From the IMG/VR virus record IMGVR_UViG_2851976983_000001, positions 36,474-100,473 of that record: 64,000 bases of DNA; one strand, written 5' to 3'. The number at the start of each line of letters is the position of its first letter. Position 1 is the stretch's first letter. The position numbers and the translations under genes are program-made. Shown piece after piece: positions 15,321 to 64,000 of this stretch. Below the pieces are notes generated by a model. The model did not search any database, was not told where the DNA came from, and saw nothing but the letters and a program-made list of their open reading frames with translations. The stretch is from a virus (lineage: Duplodnaviria; Heunggongvirae; Uroviricota; Caudoviricetes).

Positions 15321-15395
15321 TGGCGATGGTGGGTGGACTCGAACCACCGACCAGTTGATTAACAGTCAACCGCTCTACCACTGAGCTACACCATC
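15321..15395 (-). tRNA. tRNA-Asn (anticodon GUU)
   Basis: Minus-strand sequence GATGGTG-TA-GCTC-AGTGGTA-GAGC-G-GTTGA-CTGTTAA-TCAAC-TGGTC-GGTGG-TTCGAGT-CCACC-CACCATC-G-CCA folds as a cloverleaf with encoded CCA; 75 nt. Confidence 0.85.
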
Positions 15396-36155: not shown

Positions 36156-39100
36156 ATTAAGTATGTACCTACTTATTTTTACCTATATAAATATTTTTTT
36201 CTACATTACAGAAGGCCAATTCTTACTCGTAGGACGTTGTTATCGTCATAAACGTCAATCCGCTGACCATTTATGACCAGTCGCCCATTACCCCCGCTAT
36301 TACCGTTGATCTCAAGCGTTCCATTTTTGCCGAACCGCCATCCAGATCTACCGCTAACAAAATTGGTAGATTGCAGATCGCCTACTTTTGCATTGGTGAT
36401 TGTGCCATCCTTGATATACGCACCATTCATATAGGCGATACTGTTTTCGATAACAAATGGCGTGGTGATCTTCCCGTTAACAGAGTTGACCAAACCAAAC
36501 CTGTCAGCCTGCACCAAAAACTGAGAAAGGCCAGTGGTGTCGATACCAAGCGCAATACCAGCAACATACTTCTGCCCTCCGCTCGTTGAAGTCTCCATTT
36601 TCAACGTCCACGCGGTTGACACTTTTTTGTTGGTATCAGCAATAGCTGTTGCCTGCTGTTGAATTGTCGCGGTATTTCCATCCACCTCTGCTTTCAGAGT
36701 GTCGATTCGCCCACTTAGAGCATTATCTGCCTGCGTTCTCGCTGTCGTTTCAGTTGTGACCGCCGCAGAAATGTTGGCTGCTGTTTGAGACTCTAAGTTT
36801 GTGATTTGAGTCGCCAATGCCGCATCTTGCTCTGTACGCGTTTTCGTTTCGGTTGCTACAGCCGCTTTAATATCCTCTTTGTATTGAGAGGTCAGCTTGG
36901 TGATCTGAGACGACAACGCCGAGTCAGCATCAGTTCGAGCCTGCGTTTCAACTGCAACGGCCGCACTAATATCTTTCGCTGTCTGTGCTTTTAAACTTGA
37001 AACCTCTTTTGTTAAAGCGGTATCACCATCAGCACGAGCCGTTGTTTCTCTGGCAAGAGATGCCTCGAGATCATTAGCTTTTGCTGTAAGAGACGAAATC
37101 TGAGTGGACAATGCACTATCGGCATCAGTCCTTGCCTTTGTCTCTACAGCAACCGCTGCGGCAATATCAGTTCCGGTTTGTGCTCGCAGGCTGTTAATTT
37201 CTCGTGAGAGCGCCTGGTCAGCACTTGCTCTGGTCTCCTGCTCCTGAGTGATGGCAGCGGATATATCACCGTCAACCTTTGACTGAAGCTGGTTTATTTG
37301 TTTGGCTAACGCAGAGTCCCCGCTTGCTCGGGCCTCCTGCTCACTACGTATTGCAGCAGAAATATCATCATCAACCTTTGCCTGAAGTTGGGTGATCTGG
37401 CTTGCCAGAGCCGAATCTTCCGTTGCTCGGGCTTCTTGCTCTTCCTTAATAGCTGCGACGATATCGTTGCTTACTTTCGACTCAAGCTGAGTGATCTGTG
37501 TCGTCAGAGCTTCATCGGCAGATGTGCGAGCCTCCTGCTCTGTACTAATCGCCGCGCTGATATCTCCTTCAAACTTAGATTGCAGCTGAGTGACACGCTT
37601 TGCCAACGCTTCATCGCCATCGGCACGAGCGGTGGACTCTTCCAGAATACTGGCCTTAATGTCTTCGCCAATTTCTACGCGAATTTCCTCAACCTTCGTG
37701 GCCATTGCAGACATATCATCAGCAAAGGTTTTCTGTGTTGTTGCGATCTTCGCGTTATTGACCATCTGCTTGTGCTGGTCTTCATCTTGACGAAGAGCCA
37801 GGTCAATATTTGTTTTGGCTAACGCCTCAATGTTCGTAGTCAGTTCTGCACTGGCACGATCGACCTCTGCAACCGTCTTTTTCATTTCTTCAACGGCAGC
37901 GGAGCTTTCCTCTACCGTTGACTGCAACACTTCCAGTTGTTTAGCGTTTGCAGCATCGCCTTCAACACGAGCCTCGCTTTCCTTAGCAATAAGAGCCGCC
38001 GCTTCATCTCTTGCAGCCTTTATTGCCTCGACTGTATTAGCGAGAGCTTTATCGTGTTCAGATACGGTGTTTTCGATTTCAACAATTGCAGCATCAGTAG
38101 CATCAATTTTTTCAAACGCTTCATTGACCTTGTCGATCGTTGCCGAAACCTCACCTTTAAGCTCGGTTTGTGCGTTCTCCAAAGCATCGCTACGCTCGTT
38201 GAATTTTATTTCAAAACCCGCGAGGTTATCGCTGAACTGCTTATCTAATTCAGCTATATCTTCCTTAACGTCGTTTACCGACCCCTCCAAAGATTCGACG
38301 CTCTGGTTGATATGCTCATTTAACTCGTCAACTGCTTCTTGAGAGGCTTTGCTGTTGATGTCCTCAAGCAGAGCCTGACCAAGCTCGGAAGATGTAATTT
38401 TGCCAGCCAGGAACGACAGTACATCGCGAGTTGTCGCCTCTGTACCCAAGTTTGAGTTCGGAGGGCTTAACATACCTCGCTTGTTCGATGCTCGAACCCA
38501 GTAATACCACGTTTCGCTATCCCCAAGACCAGCATGTGTAAAGGTGGTGCTTGCAGACTCTGCGATCAGTTTCGCCGTATCCAGATTGTTGGTCTGGGAT
38601 GCGTAAACATTAATGTGATCAAGGTCTACCGAATCTGGATTAACCCAATTCAGTATCACATTACGATAGTCTCCAACGGCCGTTAATGACGTTGGGGCAT
38701 CCGGCGGTGTCATTGTGCCCAACACCTGATAAACGGTACTGATAATCTCTGTTTTTTTACCGTTGAATGAAACCGCATACAGTTGGAAGTCGTAGTGTCC
38801 ATTCTCCGCGACATTAACGATTTCGTATTGCTCTTCGGTTACACGCGCCGATTGCCAGTTCGATACATTGTTTTCATCAGAACGTCGCCAACTGATCCAA
38901 TACTCTGGAGATTTTCCTTCCCATGTTGCAGTCAGTTTTACTGACAGGTTGCCCGGGCTTGAGAGATAAGTCCCTTCAGTGATTTGCAGATTAGATGGCT
39001 TGGAGTAAGTTGGGTCCAATACCGTCGTATTCTGCGGGATCAGCGTTGCGCCATTGTCGATTGCCTCATATTTAGACGGATTGTTCTCAACAGCGGTGAT

Positions 39101-58258: not shown

Positions 58259-59833
58259 TCACTCGTTCTCTTGAGTAGATGAGTCCCCATTCCCTCGGGG
58301 TTGATCTTGCCCGCTTTCTTGGGCTGCACCACGATCATAAGTAAGTACTGACTTATTTTCAAGGGTATTTAGATCATTTTTTGGAGGAAAATTCAAGAGA
58401 TCTTTATCAAATTCCTTTTTCATCGCCTCAGTAATGTTCGGGAAAATCTTCTCAATAAGCATTTCCATCTGGTGACGACGTACAGAGTCCGGTGCCTGAA
58501 GTAATGACAGTTTCTCGGCAACAGAAAATTCATCAGTAAGGCCACGAATATCGAAACTTTCTGGATACGCAATTAAAGAGTGGTCTTCGTCCAGATCTAC
58601 CCCCATCCATTTCGCAACCAGTAGCATGATTTGGCGTTCAGCCCTTTCCAGACGCTCTGCTTTTGTGACAAGCAAGCTATTTACACGCTGGAAGTCATAC
58701 ATTTTTGCGGCACCAGATGAGTTATCGATTCCCTGTGCGTTGTCCTGCTTCGTTCGCTCACCAGCTACACCAACTGAATGGTAGATTTCGTTAATCACCG
58801 TCTTAATCGTAGTGATGATCATCTGAGCTTGTTTCGGGTCTGGTGACAGATAAAACGGCTGGTTTCCACCTTCAGAATCGTAGGTGAAGACTCGCTTTGT
58901 GCCCATTTCAAGCACTTTAGTGTGGTTTTCATCACCAGGTAAAAGCGACTGTACTGGTATAGCCAACTGGCTAAATGTCTGATCCTGAATAATGGCATCA
59001 AGGTTTGACAGATAGTTTGCAACCGCACGATCAAGATAAGCGATATCATCGATCAACGATGGGCTGAAATACGGTGATTCACTTTCTCCAATACAATCAA
59101 CAGGAAACACAGGAACTACGCCGAGATTATGCTCACCGCTATCCTCTAAAATAACTTTTGCCTGACGGCGACCTGCTCCACCAGCGCCCTTCTTCACTTC
59201 CTCACGGAACAGATACCACTCGTTTTGTGTCCACAGACGATAACGTTGGTATTCCTGACCTGTAGAAGTAAAAGGATCTGCGTCATCGCGAGCGACTTCC
59301 ACAATTAACGCCCATAACATATTCCCGTCGTCGTCCCATGCCACATCCAGCATTTGCTGAGGTGAAATCCAGTAGGCGTAGGCGCGAGCATCTTTCTTTT
59401 TCTCGTCAGCTACTGACTCAACATCACCACTCATCGTGCTATCGACAACAACCCATATGCGACCGTAAATAGACGACTGCAAATCAATAGCGGCCATAAA
59501 TGAGTCAATAGAGGCATTCTGGCGAGTCGCACGTTTCCAGAAATTGCGGATCTGCTCTGGTGCCTCTTCGATATTTCTATGAATGTCTTCTTTAAAGAGA
59601 TATTTGTTGATGAGGTTTACCACCTCACGAGTGTGGTTGAAGCGATAAGCACGTTCAACTCGCTCCTTAAACTCCTGATCTCCCTCTTTAAAGTAACGAA
59701 AGATATTGTCTGTAAACCAACCACGCCCGCCAGCGTAAGTGCTGGCGAGGAAGTCCCAATGTTCTTTTTTCTTTTCGTATTCCGGGTGGCGTCGCGCCAC
59801 CAGATCCTTAATTTGTTTGTCGTTCAATTCCAT
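58259..59833 (-). CDS. portal protein
   Basis: 524 aa between large terminase and scaffold; acidic C-terminus. Confidence 0.7.
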   Translation of the reverse strand: MELNDKQIKDLVARRHPEYEKKKEHWDFLASTYAGGRGWFTDNIFRYFKEGDQEFKERVERAYRFNHTREVVNLINKYLFKEDIHRNIEEAPEQIRNFWKRATRQNASIDSFMAAIDLQSSIYGRIWVVVDSTMSGDVESVADEKKKDARAYAYWISPQQMLDVAWDDDGNMLWALIVEVARDDADPFTSTGQEYQRYRLWTQNEWYLFREEVKKGAGGAGRRQAKVILEDSGEHNLGVVPVFPVDCIGESESPYFSPSLIDDIAYLDRAVANYLSNLDAIIQDQTFSQLAIPVQSLLPGDENHTKVLEMGTKRVFTYDSEGGNQPFYLSPDPKQAQMIITTIKTVINEIYHSVGVAGERTKQDNAQGIDNSSGAAKMYDFQRVNSLLVTKAERLERAERQIMLLVAKWMGVDLDEDHSLIAYPESFDIRGLTDEFSVAEKLSLLQAPDSVRRHQMEMLIEKIFPNITEAMKKEFDKDLLNFPPKNDLNTLENKSVLTYDRGAAQESGQDQPRGNGDSSTQENE

Positions 59834-59859: not shown

Positions 59860-61116
59860 CTATCGAGAACCACCAAGAATAACACGGTTTTTGACTGGAT
59901 ACCTACGATGTACTGGATAGCCCAATGCGTCTGCACTATGCTCAATGCCACCTGTCTTATCCATATCTCGTGTTCCAGGCTTGTAGATGACTTTTTCCAG
60001 TGAATCAATCAAATGCTTGCACTTCGGATCGATATACAGCCGGATATCTCCAGATGCGGTCATCAGCATTCGGTTAACAGCATTAACACGATCCGCAATT
60101 GGCGGGTGCTTTTTCGAATAATCGACACGTAAGAATCCCTTCTCTTTGAATATGTCGACGTCAGACTCCCCGCGAGCATGTTGGCGATAAGCACCTGCCG
60201 GATCTGGAAATACCGTTATCTGTGATTTCCAGCGCCAGAAGCGTCTCTCAAGCTCATCACAAACCTCTGCCGTGTTAGAGGAAAAGAGCACCAATTCATC
60301 AATTGCCCATAGCTCACCATTTGGCTGAGGTTGCAAAATTACGGAAGACATCGGGTCAATGTTGAAGTCCTGCCCTACCCATATAGGCAACCGAGGGTTG
60401 AACTGAAGCGGTTTTACATGCACGTTACGATCGAACGGGTAGTAAACGCGCCCGGACATGTTCTCAAAGCTGGCCAGGTACTCCTGAGCGAACGATTTGG
60501 GGTCCATATCGTTCTTAGCAGCTTCAATTTCCGCCGTAGGTACAAACGGAGAATCGGCAGTTACAAACTGCCAGCTCTTCCACTGTCCCTTTCTTTGCAG
60601 CTCTACGTTCTGGCCTATAGTCCACAGTTTGTGAAATTCCGAGAAGCCTTTTGGCGTACCAATGATCAGTGCACCGCCGCGTGTCGATGAAAGAGTAGGT
60701 CGTAACACCTTGTACCAAGTGTCAGCCTTCATATCCTGAAATTCATCAAGCACTACAAAATGCAACGCTACGCCGCGCAGAGTGTCAGGCTTATCAGCAC
60801 CTTTGAGGGCGATCTCCGAACCGTTCTTCAACACGATTGTCATCGTGGTGTCGTTCTTTTTCCTAACCCACTTACGAGGCAGAACTTCCTGTAGATCGTC
60901 CCACAAAATCTGGCGAGCCATCTGGTAAGTAGGAGCGACATACCAGACCCTTTGCTTTTTTTCCTTTGCCGCCGCACGAATAATAGTGGAGATCGACAAC
61001 CGGGATTTTCCCCAGCGTCGACCAGCACAAACAACTTTAAATCGATGCGGAGACTGGAAGACTTTCATCTGTCCAGAATGCAGTTGCACAAGACTGAGCG
61101 AGGACGGGATTGCCAT
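59860..61116 (-). CDS. terminase large subunit
   Basis: Walker A VCAGRRWGKS, Walker B-like HFVVLDEF; 418 aa. Confidence 0.8.
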   Translation of the reverse strand: MAIPSSLSLVQLHSGQMKVFQSPHRFKVVCAGRRWGKSRLSISTIIRAAAKEKKQRVWYVAPTYQMARQILWDDLQEVLPRKWVRKKNDTTMTIVLKNGSEIALKGADKPDTLRGVALHFVVLDEFQDMKADTWYKVLRPTLSSTRGGALIIGTPKGFSEFHKLWTIGQNVELQRKGQWKSWQFVTADSPFVPTAEIEAAKNDMDPKSFAQEYLASFENMSGRVYYPFDRNVHVKPLQFNPRLPIWVGQDFNIDPMSSVILQPQPNGELWAIDELVLFSSNTAEVCDELERRFWRWKSQITVFPDPAGAYRQHARGESDVDIFKEKGFLRVDYSKKHPPIADRVNAVNRMLMTASGDIRLYIDPKCKHLIDSLEKVIYKPGTRDMDKTGGIEHSADALGYPVHRRYPVKNRVILGGSR

Positions 61117-61748
61117 TATTCGTCCTCCCCTTCACTTCCATCATCTGTCGCATCAAATTCGCTTAGAGCTTCTTCTTCCAACGTCTCAAGCAATTCGTCA
61201 TCGATGATTTCAGGCTCGTCGTCTTCCTGACGTAATTTCGCCACCTGGGAAGGCGTAAGCTCACCAAATACCAGATTCGGAATTTCTTCCTCGTCATTTT
61301 CCGCATGATCCATGCCCAATGCTTTGGACGAAACTTCAAAGCATTTTGCAAGGGTATTACTGGCTCTCTGTAAGCTCTTGAGAGAATCCTCAATCGCCCC
61401 TAAAGGCTTACCCTCACGTTTGGCCGTAGTGACTTCGACCATCACCATCTGCCCCAACGCATACGCCCAGCCGTCATAACGTGTACGACGTTCTTCTATC
61501 TTTTCTGCACGGGCTTTAGCGCGAAGCTCTGCGTCAGATTTAAGAGACTCACGAACCATCTTCCCAACAGAGTCCGCGCCTTTCTCTAATCCTCGCTTTT
61601 TGAAATGTCTGGAGAGTGTTTCACGACGAATGCCGTACTCTTCCTCCAGCTTTGAGAGTGTATATTCGCCTGACGTCCATTTGGCTTCAGCTTCGGCCCA
61701 CTCCGCTGGTGTCAGGCGAGTTTTTACCTCGTCTTTTTCGACCGTCAT
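61116..61748 (-). CDS. terminase small subunit candidate
   Basis: 210 aa, N-terminal HTH-like segment, acidic C-terminus, ATGA-coupled to the large subunit. Confidence 0.6.
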   Translation of the reverse strand: MTVEKDEVKTRLTPAEWAEAEAKWTSGEYTLSKLEEEYGIRRETLSRHFKKRGLEKGADSVGKMVRESLKSDAELRAKARAEKIEERRTRYDGWAYALGQMVMVEVTTAKREGKPLGAIEDSLKSLQRASNTLAKCFEVSSKALGMDHAENDEEEIPNLVFGELTPSQVAKLRQEDDEPEIIDDELLETLEEEALSEFDATDDGSEGEDE

Positions 61749-61864
61749 AGATCCCTCTAAAACACACAGAGCGCGTCCATGCGCTCTAAAACAACTTGTT
61801 TACTGCATCTGCTAACCAACTTGTTTTCTGGGGTGTTTAATTAGGTCTGGCATGTCTTACGAAG

Positions 61865-61919
61865 CCTGCTTCCGTATATATTTAATAAGTTACTTATTAT
61901 TTATATATACAGATGCAGG
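61865..61919. repeat. 55-bp palindromic element, copy B
   Basis: CCTGCTTCCGTATATATTTAATAAGTTACTTATTATTTATATATACAGATGCAGG; one mismatch relative to copy A. Confidence 0.8.
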
Positions 61920-61943
61920 TCTTTAAATAAGCTCCCAGACCGA

Positions 61944-62210
61944 TTACATCACCAGTAACTTCGCTTTGGCTCGACCTAAAGTGGTTAACCCAAGAGTTCG
62001 GCGGTGATAGCGATTGTCACTGCGTTGGCGCGTATGCCCTTTCTCCACCAGCCCCTTTTTTATCAGAGCGCGAATTGAGAACTGGATACTTTGCTTGGTT
62101 GTCTTGTACGGCAAAACTTCAAGCAATTCGTCCAGGTCAAGTAGATGACCTCGCTCATAACCGAGATTGAGCGTTTTGATGATGTCCTTTTGTTTATCGG
62201 TTAACGTCAT
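61944..62210 (-). CDS. small DNA-binding protein (winged-helix-like)
   Basis: 88 aa, basic; ...KQSIQFSIRALIKKGLVEK... recognition-helix-like segment. Confidence 0.4.
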   Translation of the reverse strand: MTLTDKQKDIIKTLNLGYERGHLLDLDELLEVLPYKTTKQSIQFSIRALIKKGLVEKGHTRQRSDNRYHRRTLGLTTLGRAKAKLLVM

Positions 62211-62219
62211 GGCAAATCC

Positions 62220-63110
62220 TTATGCCGGTAAAGCAATTTCTAACGGTTTATCCAAAGGTTGTTTGTCGAATGCCAGCAGTGGCAGCGTGTCAGGCAGTCG
62301 ACGGCCAAAGTCAGGGTTTCGGTACACACCATACAACGGAGACGTAAAGCTCAGGTTGTGAATGTCCTTGAGCAGCTTCACAATGCTGGCCTCGTCCACC
62401 AGACTGTCGGCAATGTCCTGAATCGTCGTGCCACGATTCCGCCCAGCTTTTGCCAGGGAACTGTTCTTGTGGTAGTCCGCCACCAGATCACGCAGTGCAC
62501 GGCGACGACGAGACTCGCTCATTGCGAACAACTCTTTGACGATCGCCTCGTTATCACCCGGGTCGGAACGGAAATGGCGCTGGAATACACGCAGTGCACT
62601 TTCATAGCTCTTCGGTCGCTCAGGGCGGATGAACTTAAACCCTGCTTTCATGGCGAAGGGATTGTATTTGCTCATCGAGGACTGGATCTCAATGATTGGC
62701 CGGTCATGCATCCTGCTAACCAGGTTAATCATTCGATAAGAGACGCCTACGCCACGATACTGAGTATCCACAACTGAGCGACTGATCACCGCAAAGTTGT
62801 TATTTACGTACCGACCCCAGTACTGGTTAGCCACGGTGGTATTAGTGGTTGGTTTCAACTTAGGAAACATGCGGTGGCGAGGTGCCAGCAGTAGTTTCGG
62901 GTAAGCCATAACCACGACGCCCACCAGACGGTCATCAAGTTCGCAGCGATAGTAAGTTGGCGCGAAAGGTTTGCCGTCTGTTTTGTAGTGAAGCGACTTA
63001 AGAGCGTGCCAGTCCTCTACAGTTCCCTTTGTGACAGTCATTCGCTCCAGAAAGTCCAGATGACGCGGAAACTCTTCAGGGCGGTAGCGTTTAATGATGA
63101 TGTCCGTCAT
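62220..63110 (-). CDS. GNAT-fold acetyltransferase-like protein with C-terminal extension
   Basis: VVDTQYRGVGVSYRMINLV (Q/RxxGxG motif A) and ...NPFAMKAGFKFI; ATGA-coupled to the upstream ATPase. Confidence 0.45.
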   Translation of the reverse strand: MTDIIIKRYRPEEFPRHLDFLERMTVTKGTVEDWHALKSLHYKTDGKPFAPTYYRCELDDRLVGVVVMAYPKLLLAPRHRMFPKLKPTTNTTVANQYWGRYVNNNFAVISRSVVDTQYRGVGVSYRMINLVSRMHDRPIIEIQSSMSKYNPFAMKAGFKFIRPERPKSYESALRVFQRHFRSDPGDNEAIVKELFAMSESRRRRALRDLVADYHKNSSLAKAGRNRGTTIQDIADSLVDEASIVKLLKDIHNLSFTSPLYGVYRNPDFGRRLPDTLPLLAFDKQPLDKPLEIALPA

Positions 63111-63772
63111 AAATGAACCTCATCATGACTACCATTGTGATATTCCACCTTCACGCGTTCTTTGTAGTGCTTGGTTATCTGCATATCCGGGCGCAGCGCG
63201 TTCTTCAGGTCTTCGTGAGTCGTCGCCACCATTACCGTTGCACCAACCTTTCGAGCGGCACGCTGGAGGTTAGATGCCACAACCTGAGCGGTTACACGGT
63301 CTAGAACAGCACCGAACTCGTCAGCAGCCCACACTTTAGCGCCTGACTCAATCAGTTTGGCAATCTTGAGACGATATTTCTGACCGTCTGACATTTCAGA
63401 AGGCTTGCGAACAAACAGATATGCATCGTTCAGACCAGCCATAGATAACAACCCAAGCGCATCGCTGGTCGTTTTGCCCAACTGATCGATGACGTTAACC
63501 TCATTATCGAAGGTAAAATCATCGATGGAGGCTACAGACAGCCCTTCATCCTTCATCTGTCGTTGCAACTCGCGCAGCACAACGGATTTGCCGGAACCGG
63601 ATTGGCCGGTGATGTACACCACATCGCCCTGCTTCACTTCCAGCTCCAGATTGTCGTAAAGCGTCCACTCTTTTTCGTCCAGGCCAAGCCCGAACGACTC
63701 AGCGATTTCCAACGTGCGCGTGGTTTTATTTACGCGTGTCTGAAACGATACGTTGATGATGTATTTGCTCAT
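63107..63772 (-). CDS. soluble ABC-type ATPase (nucleotide-binding domain only)
   Basis: Walker A GQSGSGKS, signature-like MSDGQKYR, Walker B VWAADEF, H-loop ATTHE; 221 aa, no TM segments. Confidence 0.65.
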   Translation of the reverse strand: MSKYIINVSFQTRVNKTTRTLEIAESFGLGLDEKEWTLYDNLELEVKQGDVVYITGQSGSGKSVVLRELQRQMKDEGLSVASIDDFTFDNEVNVIDQLGKTTSDALGLLSMAGLNDAYLFVRKPSEMSDGQKYRLKIAKLIESGAKVWAADEFGAVLDRVTAQVVASNLQRAARKVGATVMVATTHEDLKNALRPDMQITKHYKERVKVEYHNGSHDEVHL

Positions 63773-64000
63773 GCAGCCATCTCCCCGGAAGAGATCTTCT
63801 CCGCATATGCCACAAATGCGTCTACCCCGCTTTCTCCCGTCATTTCTTCCATGTGGGCAAGCAAATCACCAACAACAATGGCAGAGCCAGCAGGAAGCGT
63901 TTTAAAGCCCAATACGTCGACAACACGTACTTCTTCCGCTGCAACTTCACGACTGATCTCGGTGTGTTCATCCTTCTGTCGTTTAGTTTCTTCGCCAAGA
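63769..64000 (-). CDS. hypothetical protein, 5' end beyond the window
   Basis: Open frame from the window edge ending ...FVAYAEKISSGEMAA with a stop overlapping the ATPase start. Confidence 0.4.
   Translation of the reverse strand, partial: LGEETKRQKDEHTEISREVAAEEVRVVDVLGFKTLPAGSAIVVGDLLAHMEEMTGESGVDAFVAYAEKISSGEMAA

Follow-up and report, generated by a model that had tools for sequence, protein, structure and literature searches.

Gene organisation of the locus

The DNA analysed in this work is a stretch of 64,000 nucleotides (positions 36,474 to 100,473 of the IMG/VR virus record IMGVR_UViG_2851976983_000001) that is referred to here as the window. The stretch is an SSU5-like Escherichia coli phage-plasmid. 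It shares 98.4-99.5% identity with the Escherichia phages CMS-2020a, Cyrano, and PhiR41_1, and 88% with Salmonella phage SSU5. Phage-plasmids of this type are common among E. coli, Salmonella, and Klebsiella. The subject of this work is a pair of adjacent genes at the right-hand end of the window that encode an ATP-binding cassette (ABC) ATPase and a protein resembling the GCN5-related N-acetyltransferases (GNAT). All open reading frames (ORFs) at this locus are on the minus strand.

The ABC ATPase (221 aa) is encoded at 63107..63772 and the GNAT-like protein (296 aa) is encoded at 62220..63110. The gene upstream of the ATPase gene is truncated by the end of the window, and only its last 76 codons and stop are present (63769..64000, stop at 63769-63771). 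The plus strand reads TCAT at 63107-63110, where the ATPase and GNAT-like genes meet, and at 63769-63772, where the truncated gene meets the ATPase start. On the minus strand both junctions thus read as ATGA overlaps, and the translational coupling that a preliminary description of the window had reported for the pair and for the partial upstream gene is confirmed. The truncated gene is the second of two ParB_N-domain genes. Its full length of 222 aa is seen in PhiR41_1, where the C-terminus of XSB42497 is identical to the partial translation from the window. The first ParB-like gene (226 aa) is located further upstream, beyond the window.

The last gene of the operon encodes a winged-helix-like protein (88 aa, isoelectric point (pI) 10.2; 61944..62210; PHROG 900 E 1.9e-45) and starts 9 nt past the stop of the GNAT-like gene. 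The operon thus comprises five small genes in the order ParB-ParB-ABC-GNAT-wHTH (winged helix-turn-helix) and is divergent from a helicase gene. The 88-aa protein exhibits weak wHTH matches to LexA_DNA_bind, Sta1, and Lrs14. An ORF of similar size (87-113 aa) occupies the same slot in two distant relatives (L003 and L004) and in Pseudomonas phage nickie; tblastn similarity to the 88-aa protein was detected in L003, L004, and Xanthomonas phage JGB6 and was not detected in nickie. The 88-aa protein is probably a DNA-binding component or a regulator.

The operon is followed by a structured intergenic region of 195 bp (61749..61943) and then by the packaging genes. A TerS-like DNA-binding protein (210 aa, with an acidic tail; 61116..61748; PHROG 867 E 2e-100) is encoded directly upstream of TerL (418 aa; 59860..61116; Pfam Terminase_6N E 3e-9; PHROG 10250/2), and its gene overlaps the TerL start and is translationally coupled to it. 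The portal (524 aa) is encoded at 58259..59833. The pair had been described as lying just upstream of the terminase, which is true, with the 88-aa gene and the 195-bp region in between. This region contains a terminator-like hairpin and T-run (minus strand 61788..61767), which stop about 10-20 nt short of the TerS start. Two 17-nt repeats, both palindromic, are located at 61789 (AAACAACTTGTTTACTG) and 61814 (a near-copy), and a long AT-rich palindrome spans 61865-61919. The GenBank records of SSU5 and Cyrano were both opened within this gap. The region could be an operator, a late promoter, or a packaging site. Elsewhere in the window, a single tRNA-Asn (GTT) gene is located at 15321-15395 on the minus strand.

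The ABC ATPase

The complete ABC motif set that had been described for the 221-aa protein is present: Walker A GQSGSGKS (56), signature MSDGQ (127), Walker B VWAADE (147), and H-loop TTH (184). The protein has a pI of 5.8 and matches Pfam ABC_tran with E 5.8e-13. Its closest ABC relatives by both sequence and structure are nucleotide-binding domains (NBDs) of the transporter type. GenBank, RefSeq, and PHROG accordingly call both genes of the pair 'ABC transporter ATP-binding', and the pair could be read as transporter subunits carried as an auxiliary metabolic gene. However, neither the window nor any of the 23 related loci that were examined encodes a permease or other membrane protein near the pair, as expected of the soluble, permease-less ATPase that had been proposed. 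The second 'ABC' gene encodes a GNAT and not an ATPase. The fusion partners of the ATPase among its homologues are GNAT, family-B DNA polymerase (PolB), intein, and TFIIB-like domains, and never membrane domains. The transporter subunit label was therefore rejected, and this rejection is well supported. The 'ABC transporter' labels in GenBank, RefSeq, and PHROGs are wrong, and these genes should not be counted as auxiliary metabolic genes.

Two other assignments were tried and rejected. The strongest PADLOC match of the ATPase (mad3) covers the P-loop only, and a weaker match (mad8, E 1.2e-8) covers most of the NBD, as expected among ABC ATPases. The GNAT-like protein has no PADLOC matches. 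PADLOC thus gave no specific match to a known anti-phage defence system for either protein, and NCBIfam gave no specific family for either protein. The pair also showed no Pfam, PHROG, or PDB match to TerS, HNH, or another packaging accessory family, and the TerS-like gene at 61748..61116 is separate from it. A terminase small subunit reading was therefore rejected. No homology of the pair to a known terminase accessory or structural component was found.

The GNAT-like protein

The 296-aa protein matches Pfam Acetyltransf_10 below threshold (E 0.037; 14.4 bits against a cutoff of 23.6 bits). Shorter homologues in other phages clear the Pfam GNAT threshold, for example Acetyltransf_1 at 35-37 bits. 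PDB sequence searches with the protein alone and with a profile of 43 sequences gave nothing significant. The conservation of the protein was examined in these 43 sequences, which are 42-75% identical to the window protein. The RGxG of motif A (R119, G120, and G122) and a motif-B-like NPFAxKAGF (150-158) are invariant or nearly so. The QYRGVG motif that had been noted earlier is located at residues 117-122, the acyl-CoA motifs are intact, and the identification of the partner as a GNAT holds. The GNAT fold of the 296-aa protein is well supported.

The core of the protein occupies about residues 1-164. It is followed by a helical insert of about 90 residues (about 165-255) and by a terminal strand motif that is conserved (257-267). 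The strand motif is PLYGVYxNPD, of which Y260, G261, N265, P266, and D267 are invariant. An extension of about 130 aa had been described at this end. An extra C-terminal region is indeed present, and secondary structure alone suggests that it is better read as the helical insert followed by the PLYGVYxNPD strand. By the same secondary-structure comparison, a fused homologue shares the layout of core, insert, and strand. With a pI of 9.8 the protein is basic, and Arg, Lys, and His account for many of its invariant positions. Together with the conserved RGxG and motif B, these features suggest a putative working enzyme that acts on a polyanion. In structural searches, Mom ranked 6th in the PDB and phage Mom ranked 2nd in a viral library, with generic GNATs scoring alike.

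The two proteins as one functional unit

Among 1.8 billion representative proteins, a profile search identified 988 relatives. Many of these span 450-500 aa, with Pfam ABC_tran in the N-terminal half and the GNAT-like part C-terminal to it. The ABC(N) and GNAT(C) domains are fused in this one order in hundreds of viral and proviral proteins (COG2401). The window ATPase matches the N-terminal halves of the fusions with phmmer E-values of 1e-40 to 1e-64, far above generic ABC similarity, and an unrelated Rad50-like ABC protein from one such locus reached only 1e-5 against the family ATPase profile. The GNAT profile matches the fused members with E-values of about 1e-15 to 1e-28, with reciprocal hidden Markov model (HMM) matches. 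Because both halves of the fusions show family-specific matches, the window pair is the counterpart of a gene fusion with the same order. Co-occurrence of the two genes outside this element had been set beforehand as the test that could refute their pairing, and the same-order fusion in hundreds of viral proteins demonstrates it.

The ORFs are also maintained as intact genes. The GNAT-like ORF is intact in 80 of 80 related viral loci and the ATPase ORF in 78 of the 79 related loci with an ATPase match. The best homologue matches reach E 1e-195. The pair is therefore not a pair of chance ORFs. In the clade of SSU5 and nickie, identity to the window element is 54-59% for the ABC ATPase, 56-62% for TerL, 47-55% for the portal, and 34-45% for the GNAT-like protein. 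The ATPase is about as conserved as TerL. A fused homologue was modelled with a pLDDT of 92 and a pTM of 0.88, and the model predicts a rigid two-domain body. It is well supported that the ABC ATPase and the GNAT-fold protein are halves of one functional unit, and the split proteins of the window would be expected to interact physically.

Some fused homologues contain further domains. P0179 (847 aa) has an intein with a LAGLIDADG endonuclease inside its ABC domain, and P0155 (665 aa) has a C-terminal TFIIB-like cyclin repeat. A ParB identity for the N-terminal extensions of the longer fusions was ruled out; two of these extensions are PolB and the others have no match.

The ParB-like genes

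Pfam ParB_N is matched by the N-terminal domain of the 222-aa protein (E 1.3e-8) and by the 226-aa first copy (E 3.2e-13), with PHROG 930/723 matches. ParB_N is the only domain that is matched in these proteins. A ParB-like gene is located immediately upstream of the ABC-GNAT genes in 12 of the 23 sampled loci. These 12 loci span Proteobacteria, Actinobacteria, Firmicutes, and Spirochaetes, and TerS/TerL come after the pair in most of them. The order of ParB, ABC, and GNAT ahead of TerS/TerL is found in phages from five bacterial phyla. The upstream ParB-like genes belong to the ABC-GNAT unit. Two genes of this type carry labels that look like misannotations. The 'DNA modification methylase' of PhiR41_1 (L001:10072-10740) is of the ParB_N type and has no Pfam methyltransferase match, and the 'type II adenine-specific methyltransferase' of Oenococcus phage Vinitor-27 (L109:4297-4980) matches the ParB profile.

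The presence of ParB-like genes in a phage-plasmid would be in keeping with a plasmid partition system made of these genes and the ATPase. However, no ParA is encoded adjacent to the pair, and the ParB-ABC-GNAT module is also found in integrated prophages and in phages without signs of a plasmid lifestyle, and archaeal proviruses carry the family without ParB. This distribution opposes the transporter label as well. A ParABS partition system was rejected on the lack of an adjacent ParA, the match to the ParB_N domain alone, and the integrated prophages. We regard a transporter subunit or a partition system as scarcely credible explanations of the locus.

Another role for short ParB-like proteins has been reported. 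On double-stranded DNA, a subclass of post-replicative thymine dioxygenases, the enzymes of the 5mYOX/ParB pairs, depends on short ParB-like phage proteins as activators (PNAS 2026, PMC13229309). The arrangement of a ParB-like gene and an enzyme gene therefore has a tested precedent in DNA modification.

Distribution and gene neighbourhoods

The diversity of neighbourhoods was drawn from the representative-protein search, exact-protein look-ups, and tblastn against phage records. A scan of viral contigs with the SSU5-type alignment returned near-identical loci only. The gene order of the SSU5/nickie clade is a divergent helicase followed by ParB, ParB, ABC, zero to three small genes, GNAT, a small wHTH gene, TerS-like, TerL, and portal. 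This order is kept at about 34-45% GNAT identity in Ectothiorhodospira, an ENA chromosome, Pseudomonas phage nickie, and Xanthomonas phage JGB6. Further homologues were identified in Rhizobium and Stenotrophomonas phages with genomes of similar size. The genes between ABC and GNAT encode an 84-aa PHROG 796 protein in SSU5 (L002:1235-1489, SSU5_128) and Phage_gp49_66 and RyR-domain proteins in Ectothiorhodospira (L003:6961-7999), and a DUF2829 gene is within the ABC-to-GNAT span of Rhizobium phages. ATGA coupling is thus not universal, because small unrelated genes separate the ATPase and the GNAT in several relatives. In two distant relatives, a gene for a protein like deoxycytidine monophosphate deaminase is located a few genes past the divergent helicase (L003:1108-1569 and L004:2695-3183), and L003 has a radical-SAM gene in a similar position. 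The phage nickie has tRNA-Met and tRNA-Asn genes near its helicase/ParB operon (L093:1267-1428), about 2-4 kb off.

Short forms of the family, either fused (364-418 aa) or split, were identified in Gordonia, Arthrobacter, Leptospira, Pasteurella, Porphyromonas, Burkholderia (Mu-like), Nonlabens, Streptococcus, and Oenococcus phages. Pfam detected a GNAT domain in all 10 of the short-form proteins tested and ABC_tran in all 8 fusions as well. One short form had been missed by annotation. In the Streptococcus prophage phiNIH1.1 (NC_003157), an unannotated ORF of 164 codons (L099:5558-6049) between the ABC ATPase (p25) and an ASCH gene (p26) is a GNAT (Acetyltransf_1 E 4e-9). The phiNIH1.1 prophage family therefore has a split ABC and GNAT pair.

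TerS/TerL are within a few genes downstream in most loci. In archaeal tailed proviruses, the fusion is located right after TerL at three of four loci (Bathyarchaeia and related lineages) and after tail genes at the fourth (Nitrososphaerota). The pair had been described as not a standard part of a packaging module. It is unusual for packaging modules in general, yet many unrelated phages and archaeal proviruses carry it beside TerS/TerL, so this location is not peculiar to the window element. In other phages, the gene is beside or fused to PolB, by a RuvC-like gene, or among DnaB, DHH, primase, and helicase genes. An abundant group of uncultured phages (35 collection blocks) has ABC-GNAT fused to the C-terminus of PolB in a protein of 1260 aa (L087/L088:10001-13783). 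A relative of this group has separate genes in the order PolB, a 224-aa gene, ABC-GNAT, and RuvC-like (L091:3312-7755). In the Mu-like phage phiE255, the ABC-GNAT gene follows the tail-fibre genes, the position that mom occupies in Mu. The wide viral distribution of the ABC-GNAT family is well supported.

Accessory genes and the acyl donor

Several loci outside the SSU5 type have enzyme genes beside ABC-GNAT. A Formyl_trans_N gene is directly downstream of ABC-GNAT in three unrelated phages: phiE255 (gp30), a Porphyromonas phage, and Gordonia phage BiggityBass (gp3). The BiggityBass gene (L100:1823-2473) is mislabelled as a tRNA-methyltransferase and matches Formyl_trans_N. Gordonia phage Jace (gp87-gp88; L106:6092-7203) encodes a PanD aspartate 1-decarboxylase (E 2e-33) and a truncated family-III coenzyme A (CoA)-transferase directly after its ParB and ABC-GNAT genes. 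ASCH domains are encoded directly downstream in Streptococcus and Oenococcus phages, and ASCH proteins hydrolyse N4-acetylcytidine (bioRxiv 10.64898/2026.02.27.708502). A formyltransferase as neighbour suggests that the transferred group has a free amine. The beta-alanine-making decarboxylase and the CoA-transferase would supply an unusual acyl-CoA donor, and in Jace they could be a phage route to beta-alanyl-CoA. These neighbourhoods suggest that the loci concerned may make an elaborated acyl mark on nucleic acid, which would be CoA-activated, amine-bearing, and further processed.

The same genes bear on whether the nucleic acid is RNA. The joining of an ATPase to a GNAT is the logic of TmcA/NAT10, and the ABC-GNAT pairing matches it. 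In a TmcA/NAT10-like RNA or tRNA cytidine acyltransferase, the NTPase would present the RNA base, the GNAT would make N4-acetylcytidine, and translation would be adjusted during infection. The ASCH genes beside the Streptococcus and Oenococcus pairs are in line with this, as ASCH erases the N4-acetylcytidine that TmcA writes on tRNA. The Formyl_trans_N family also takes in Met-tRNA formyltransferase, and the tRNA genes of nickie and the tRNA-Asn gene of the window are consistent with such a role. However, the ATPase is an ABC NBD and not a RecD-like helicase, and no TmcA, GNAT_acetyltr_2, or tRNA-binding domains were detected by Pfam and NCBIfam. The prophage and provirus stretches examined lack tRNA genes, TmcA is already present in E. 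coli, and the neighbourhoods with ParB, TerL, PolB, RuvC, and helicase genes point to DNA. An RNA acyltransferase is quite improbable.

Proposed function of the ABC-GNAT module

The ABC-GNAT family is not new. The pair corresponds to COG2401 and PHROG 293+886, and the family has been described computationally. JGI calls the family 'ABC-type ATPase with predicted acetyltransferase domain', which is COG2401 ('ABC-type ATPase fused to a predicted acetyltransferase domain'), and the Cyrano record labels the pair likewise. The passage on ABC ATPase-GNAT proteins in Viruses 2021 (PMC7824862, citing Iyer, Zhang, Burroughs, and Aravind, NAR 2013) gives an in-silico prediction of DNA-base acylation for them, with which the ATP-driven acylation guessed in the preliminary description agrees. 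The same paper names Tenacibaculum phage pT24 as a carrier. We found that pT24 carries an ATPase of the family (HMM E 4.7e-33), and its GNAT half is linked only by a 16-residue motif-A match, with no Pfam match. No experimental report on any ABC-GNAT protein was found in the literature, including under COG2401 or its COG name. Literature on nicked Pseudomonas phage DNA and on N4-acetyldeoxycytosine was also considered and has no bearing on the ABC-GNAT question.

The reading that we favour, tentatively and at a little short of an even chance, is that phage DNA is acylated between replication and packaging in an ATP-dependent, ParB-assisted reaction. The ABC-GNAT enzyme and the ParB-like proteins would form a post-replicative nucleic-acid modification module. 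The binding of ATP would close the ABC dimer, as in all ABC NBDs. Closure of the dimer would position the attached GNAT domains, which are basic, on double-stranded phage DNA or activate them there, with the ParB-like proteins as putative cognate activators or loaders. The GNAT would then move an acyl group from acyl-CoA to an exocyclic base amine, for which N4 of cytosine and N6 of adenine are candidates. In SSU5-like phages the donor would probably be acetyl-CoA or some other acyl-CoA that is common in the host, and in some other lineages it would be an amino-acyl-type CoA. The DNA due for packaging would thereby be marked, most plausibly against host restriction or other DNA-targeting defences. 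What we infer is the use of DNA as substrate, the identity of the donor, the part played by ParB, and the purpose of the mark. This reading is favoured because the ParB, TerS/TerL, PolB, RuvC-like, and DnaB neighbours form a DNA context, and because the GNAT protein is basic with the ABC and GNAT motifs intact. The fusion of the two domains, the accessory enzymes of other lineages, the published prediction, the precedent of the ParB-dependent dioxygenases, and the TerL-like conservation of the ATPase also count in its favour.

Several findings weigh against acylation of DNA. All support for the activity or the substrate is contextual, and no literature report of a modified base in SSU5-like phages was found. 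The ABC domain is a transporter-type NBD, unlike the DNA-clamping families Rad50, SMC, MutS, and UvrA. The structural matches of the GNAT-like protein are generic; N-terminal protein acetyltransferases score equal to Mom, and the E-values in the viral library are only about 1e-4. ParB is not obligatory, because it is absent next to the pair in about half of the loci sampled. The SSU5-type operon has none of the formyltransferase, PanD, CoA-transferase, and ASCH genes, which leaves an acyl-CoA common in the host as its simplest donor. The action of the ASCH erasers has to date been demonstrated on tRNA and not on DNA (bioRxiv 10.64898/2026.02.27.708502). The conservation of the ATPase at the level of TerL exceeds what is usual for a dispensable anti-restriction modification. 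Co-expression of the operon with the packaging genes is not established, because the terminator-like hairpin precedes TerS/TerL.

The generic structural matches would also fit an ATP-regulated protein acyltransferase. Its target would be a phage or host protein, such as a DNA-bound protein, the terminase or portal, the ParB-like partner, a nucleoid protein, or RNA polymerase, and it would control the switch from replication to packaging or the takeover of the host. The PanD and CoA-transferase, formyltransferase, and ASCH neighbours are hard to explain by protein acylation, and the experimental precedent of the ParB association is in DNA modification. The PolB fusion and the replication-module contexts are moreover not specific to packaging. 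Protein acylation is unlikely. Acylation of a small molecule, such as a polyamine, a nucleotide or defence signal, or an antibiotic-like compound, would serve counter-defence or the adjustment of packaging counter-ions. It leaves the dedicated fused ABC ATPase, the basic surface, and the ParB partner unexplained. PADLOC found nothing specific, and the position in replication or packaging modules is conserved across bacterial and archaeal viruses. We consider it very unlikely. The weight beyond these readings goes to some explanation that was not considered here.

Acylation of DNA may also be extended to the family as a whole. A previously undetected N-acyl DNA base modification may be present in SSU5-like phage-plasmids, many bacterial phages, and archaeal tailed proviruses. 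It would be installed after replication by ABC-GNAT with ParB as loader or activator. In some lineages the donor would be of the beta-alanyl-CoA type and the product would be N-formylated. This wider proposal is possible and rather doubtful. If it is true, DNA hypermodification would gain a new class, and ParB-dependent DNA modification would have a second, independent example. Widespread phages and clinically common phage-plasmids would carry an unseen chemical mark on their DNA, with a bearing on restriction evasion, the host range of therapeutic phages, and the reading of nanopore and single-molecule real-time (SMRT) data. The enzyme would be a new mode of coupling an ABC ATPase to nucleic-acid catalysis, and no solved structure spans both the ABC and GNAT domains. 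The system is tractable. PhiR41_1 grows on E. coli K-12 MG1655, and the 5mYOX/ParB work offers an assay by co-expression and liquid chromatography-mass spectrometry (LC-MS) of nucleosides.

Comparison with known systems

The COG2401 fusions have the same two domains as the window pair, in the same order and in a viral context. They differ from the window enzyme, which is split into two translationally coupled genes. The window GNAT also has the helical insert of about 90 residues and falls below the Pfam GNAT threshold, and the window operon adds two ParB-like genes and the small winged-helix gene.

Mom of phage Mu is a GNAT-fold DNA adenine-modifying enzyme. No sequence-level similarity between Mom and the window GNAT was detected, and Mom has specialised chemistry and neither an ATPase partner nor ParB. 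TmcA/NAT10 also combine an NTPase with a GNAT that acetylates a nucleic-acid base with acetyl-CoA and ATP, and they share the link to an ASCH 'eraser'. In contrast to the window pair, they have a RecD-like helicase ATPase, a tRNA-binding domain, and an RNA substrate, and homology is limited to the GNAT fold. Other ABC NBDs without a transport function are PhnK/PhnL of carbon-phosphorus lyase, component A2 of methyl-coenzyme M reductase (MCR) activation, ABCE1, and ABC-F. None of these is coupled to a GNAT and none is viral.

The 5mYOX/ParB pairs are similar to the window operon in that a short ParB-like protein, with a nucleoside triphosphate-binding domain and no canonical DNA-binding domain match, is encoded beside the enzyme. 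Both also exhibit the same gene arrangement of ParB followed by the enzyme. The enzyme of the 5mYOX/ParB pairs is an Fe/2-oxoglutarate dioxygenase, whereas the window element has ABC-GNAT and two ParB paralogues.

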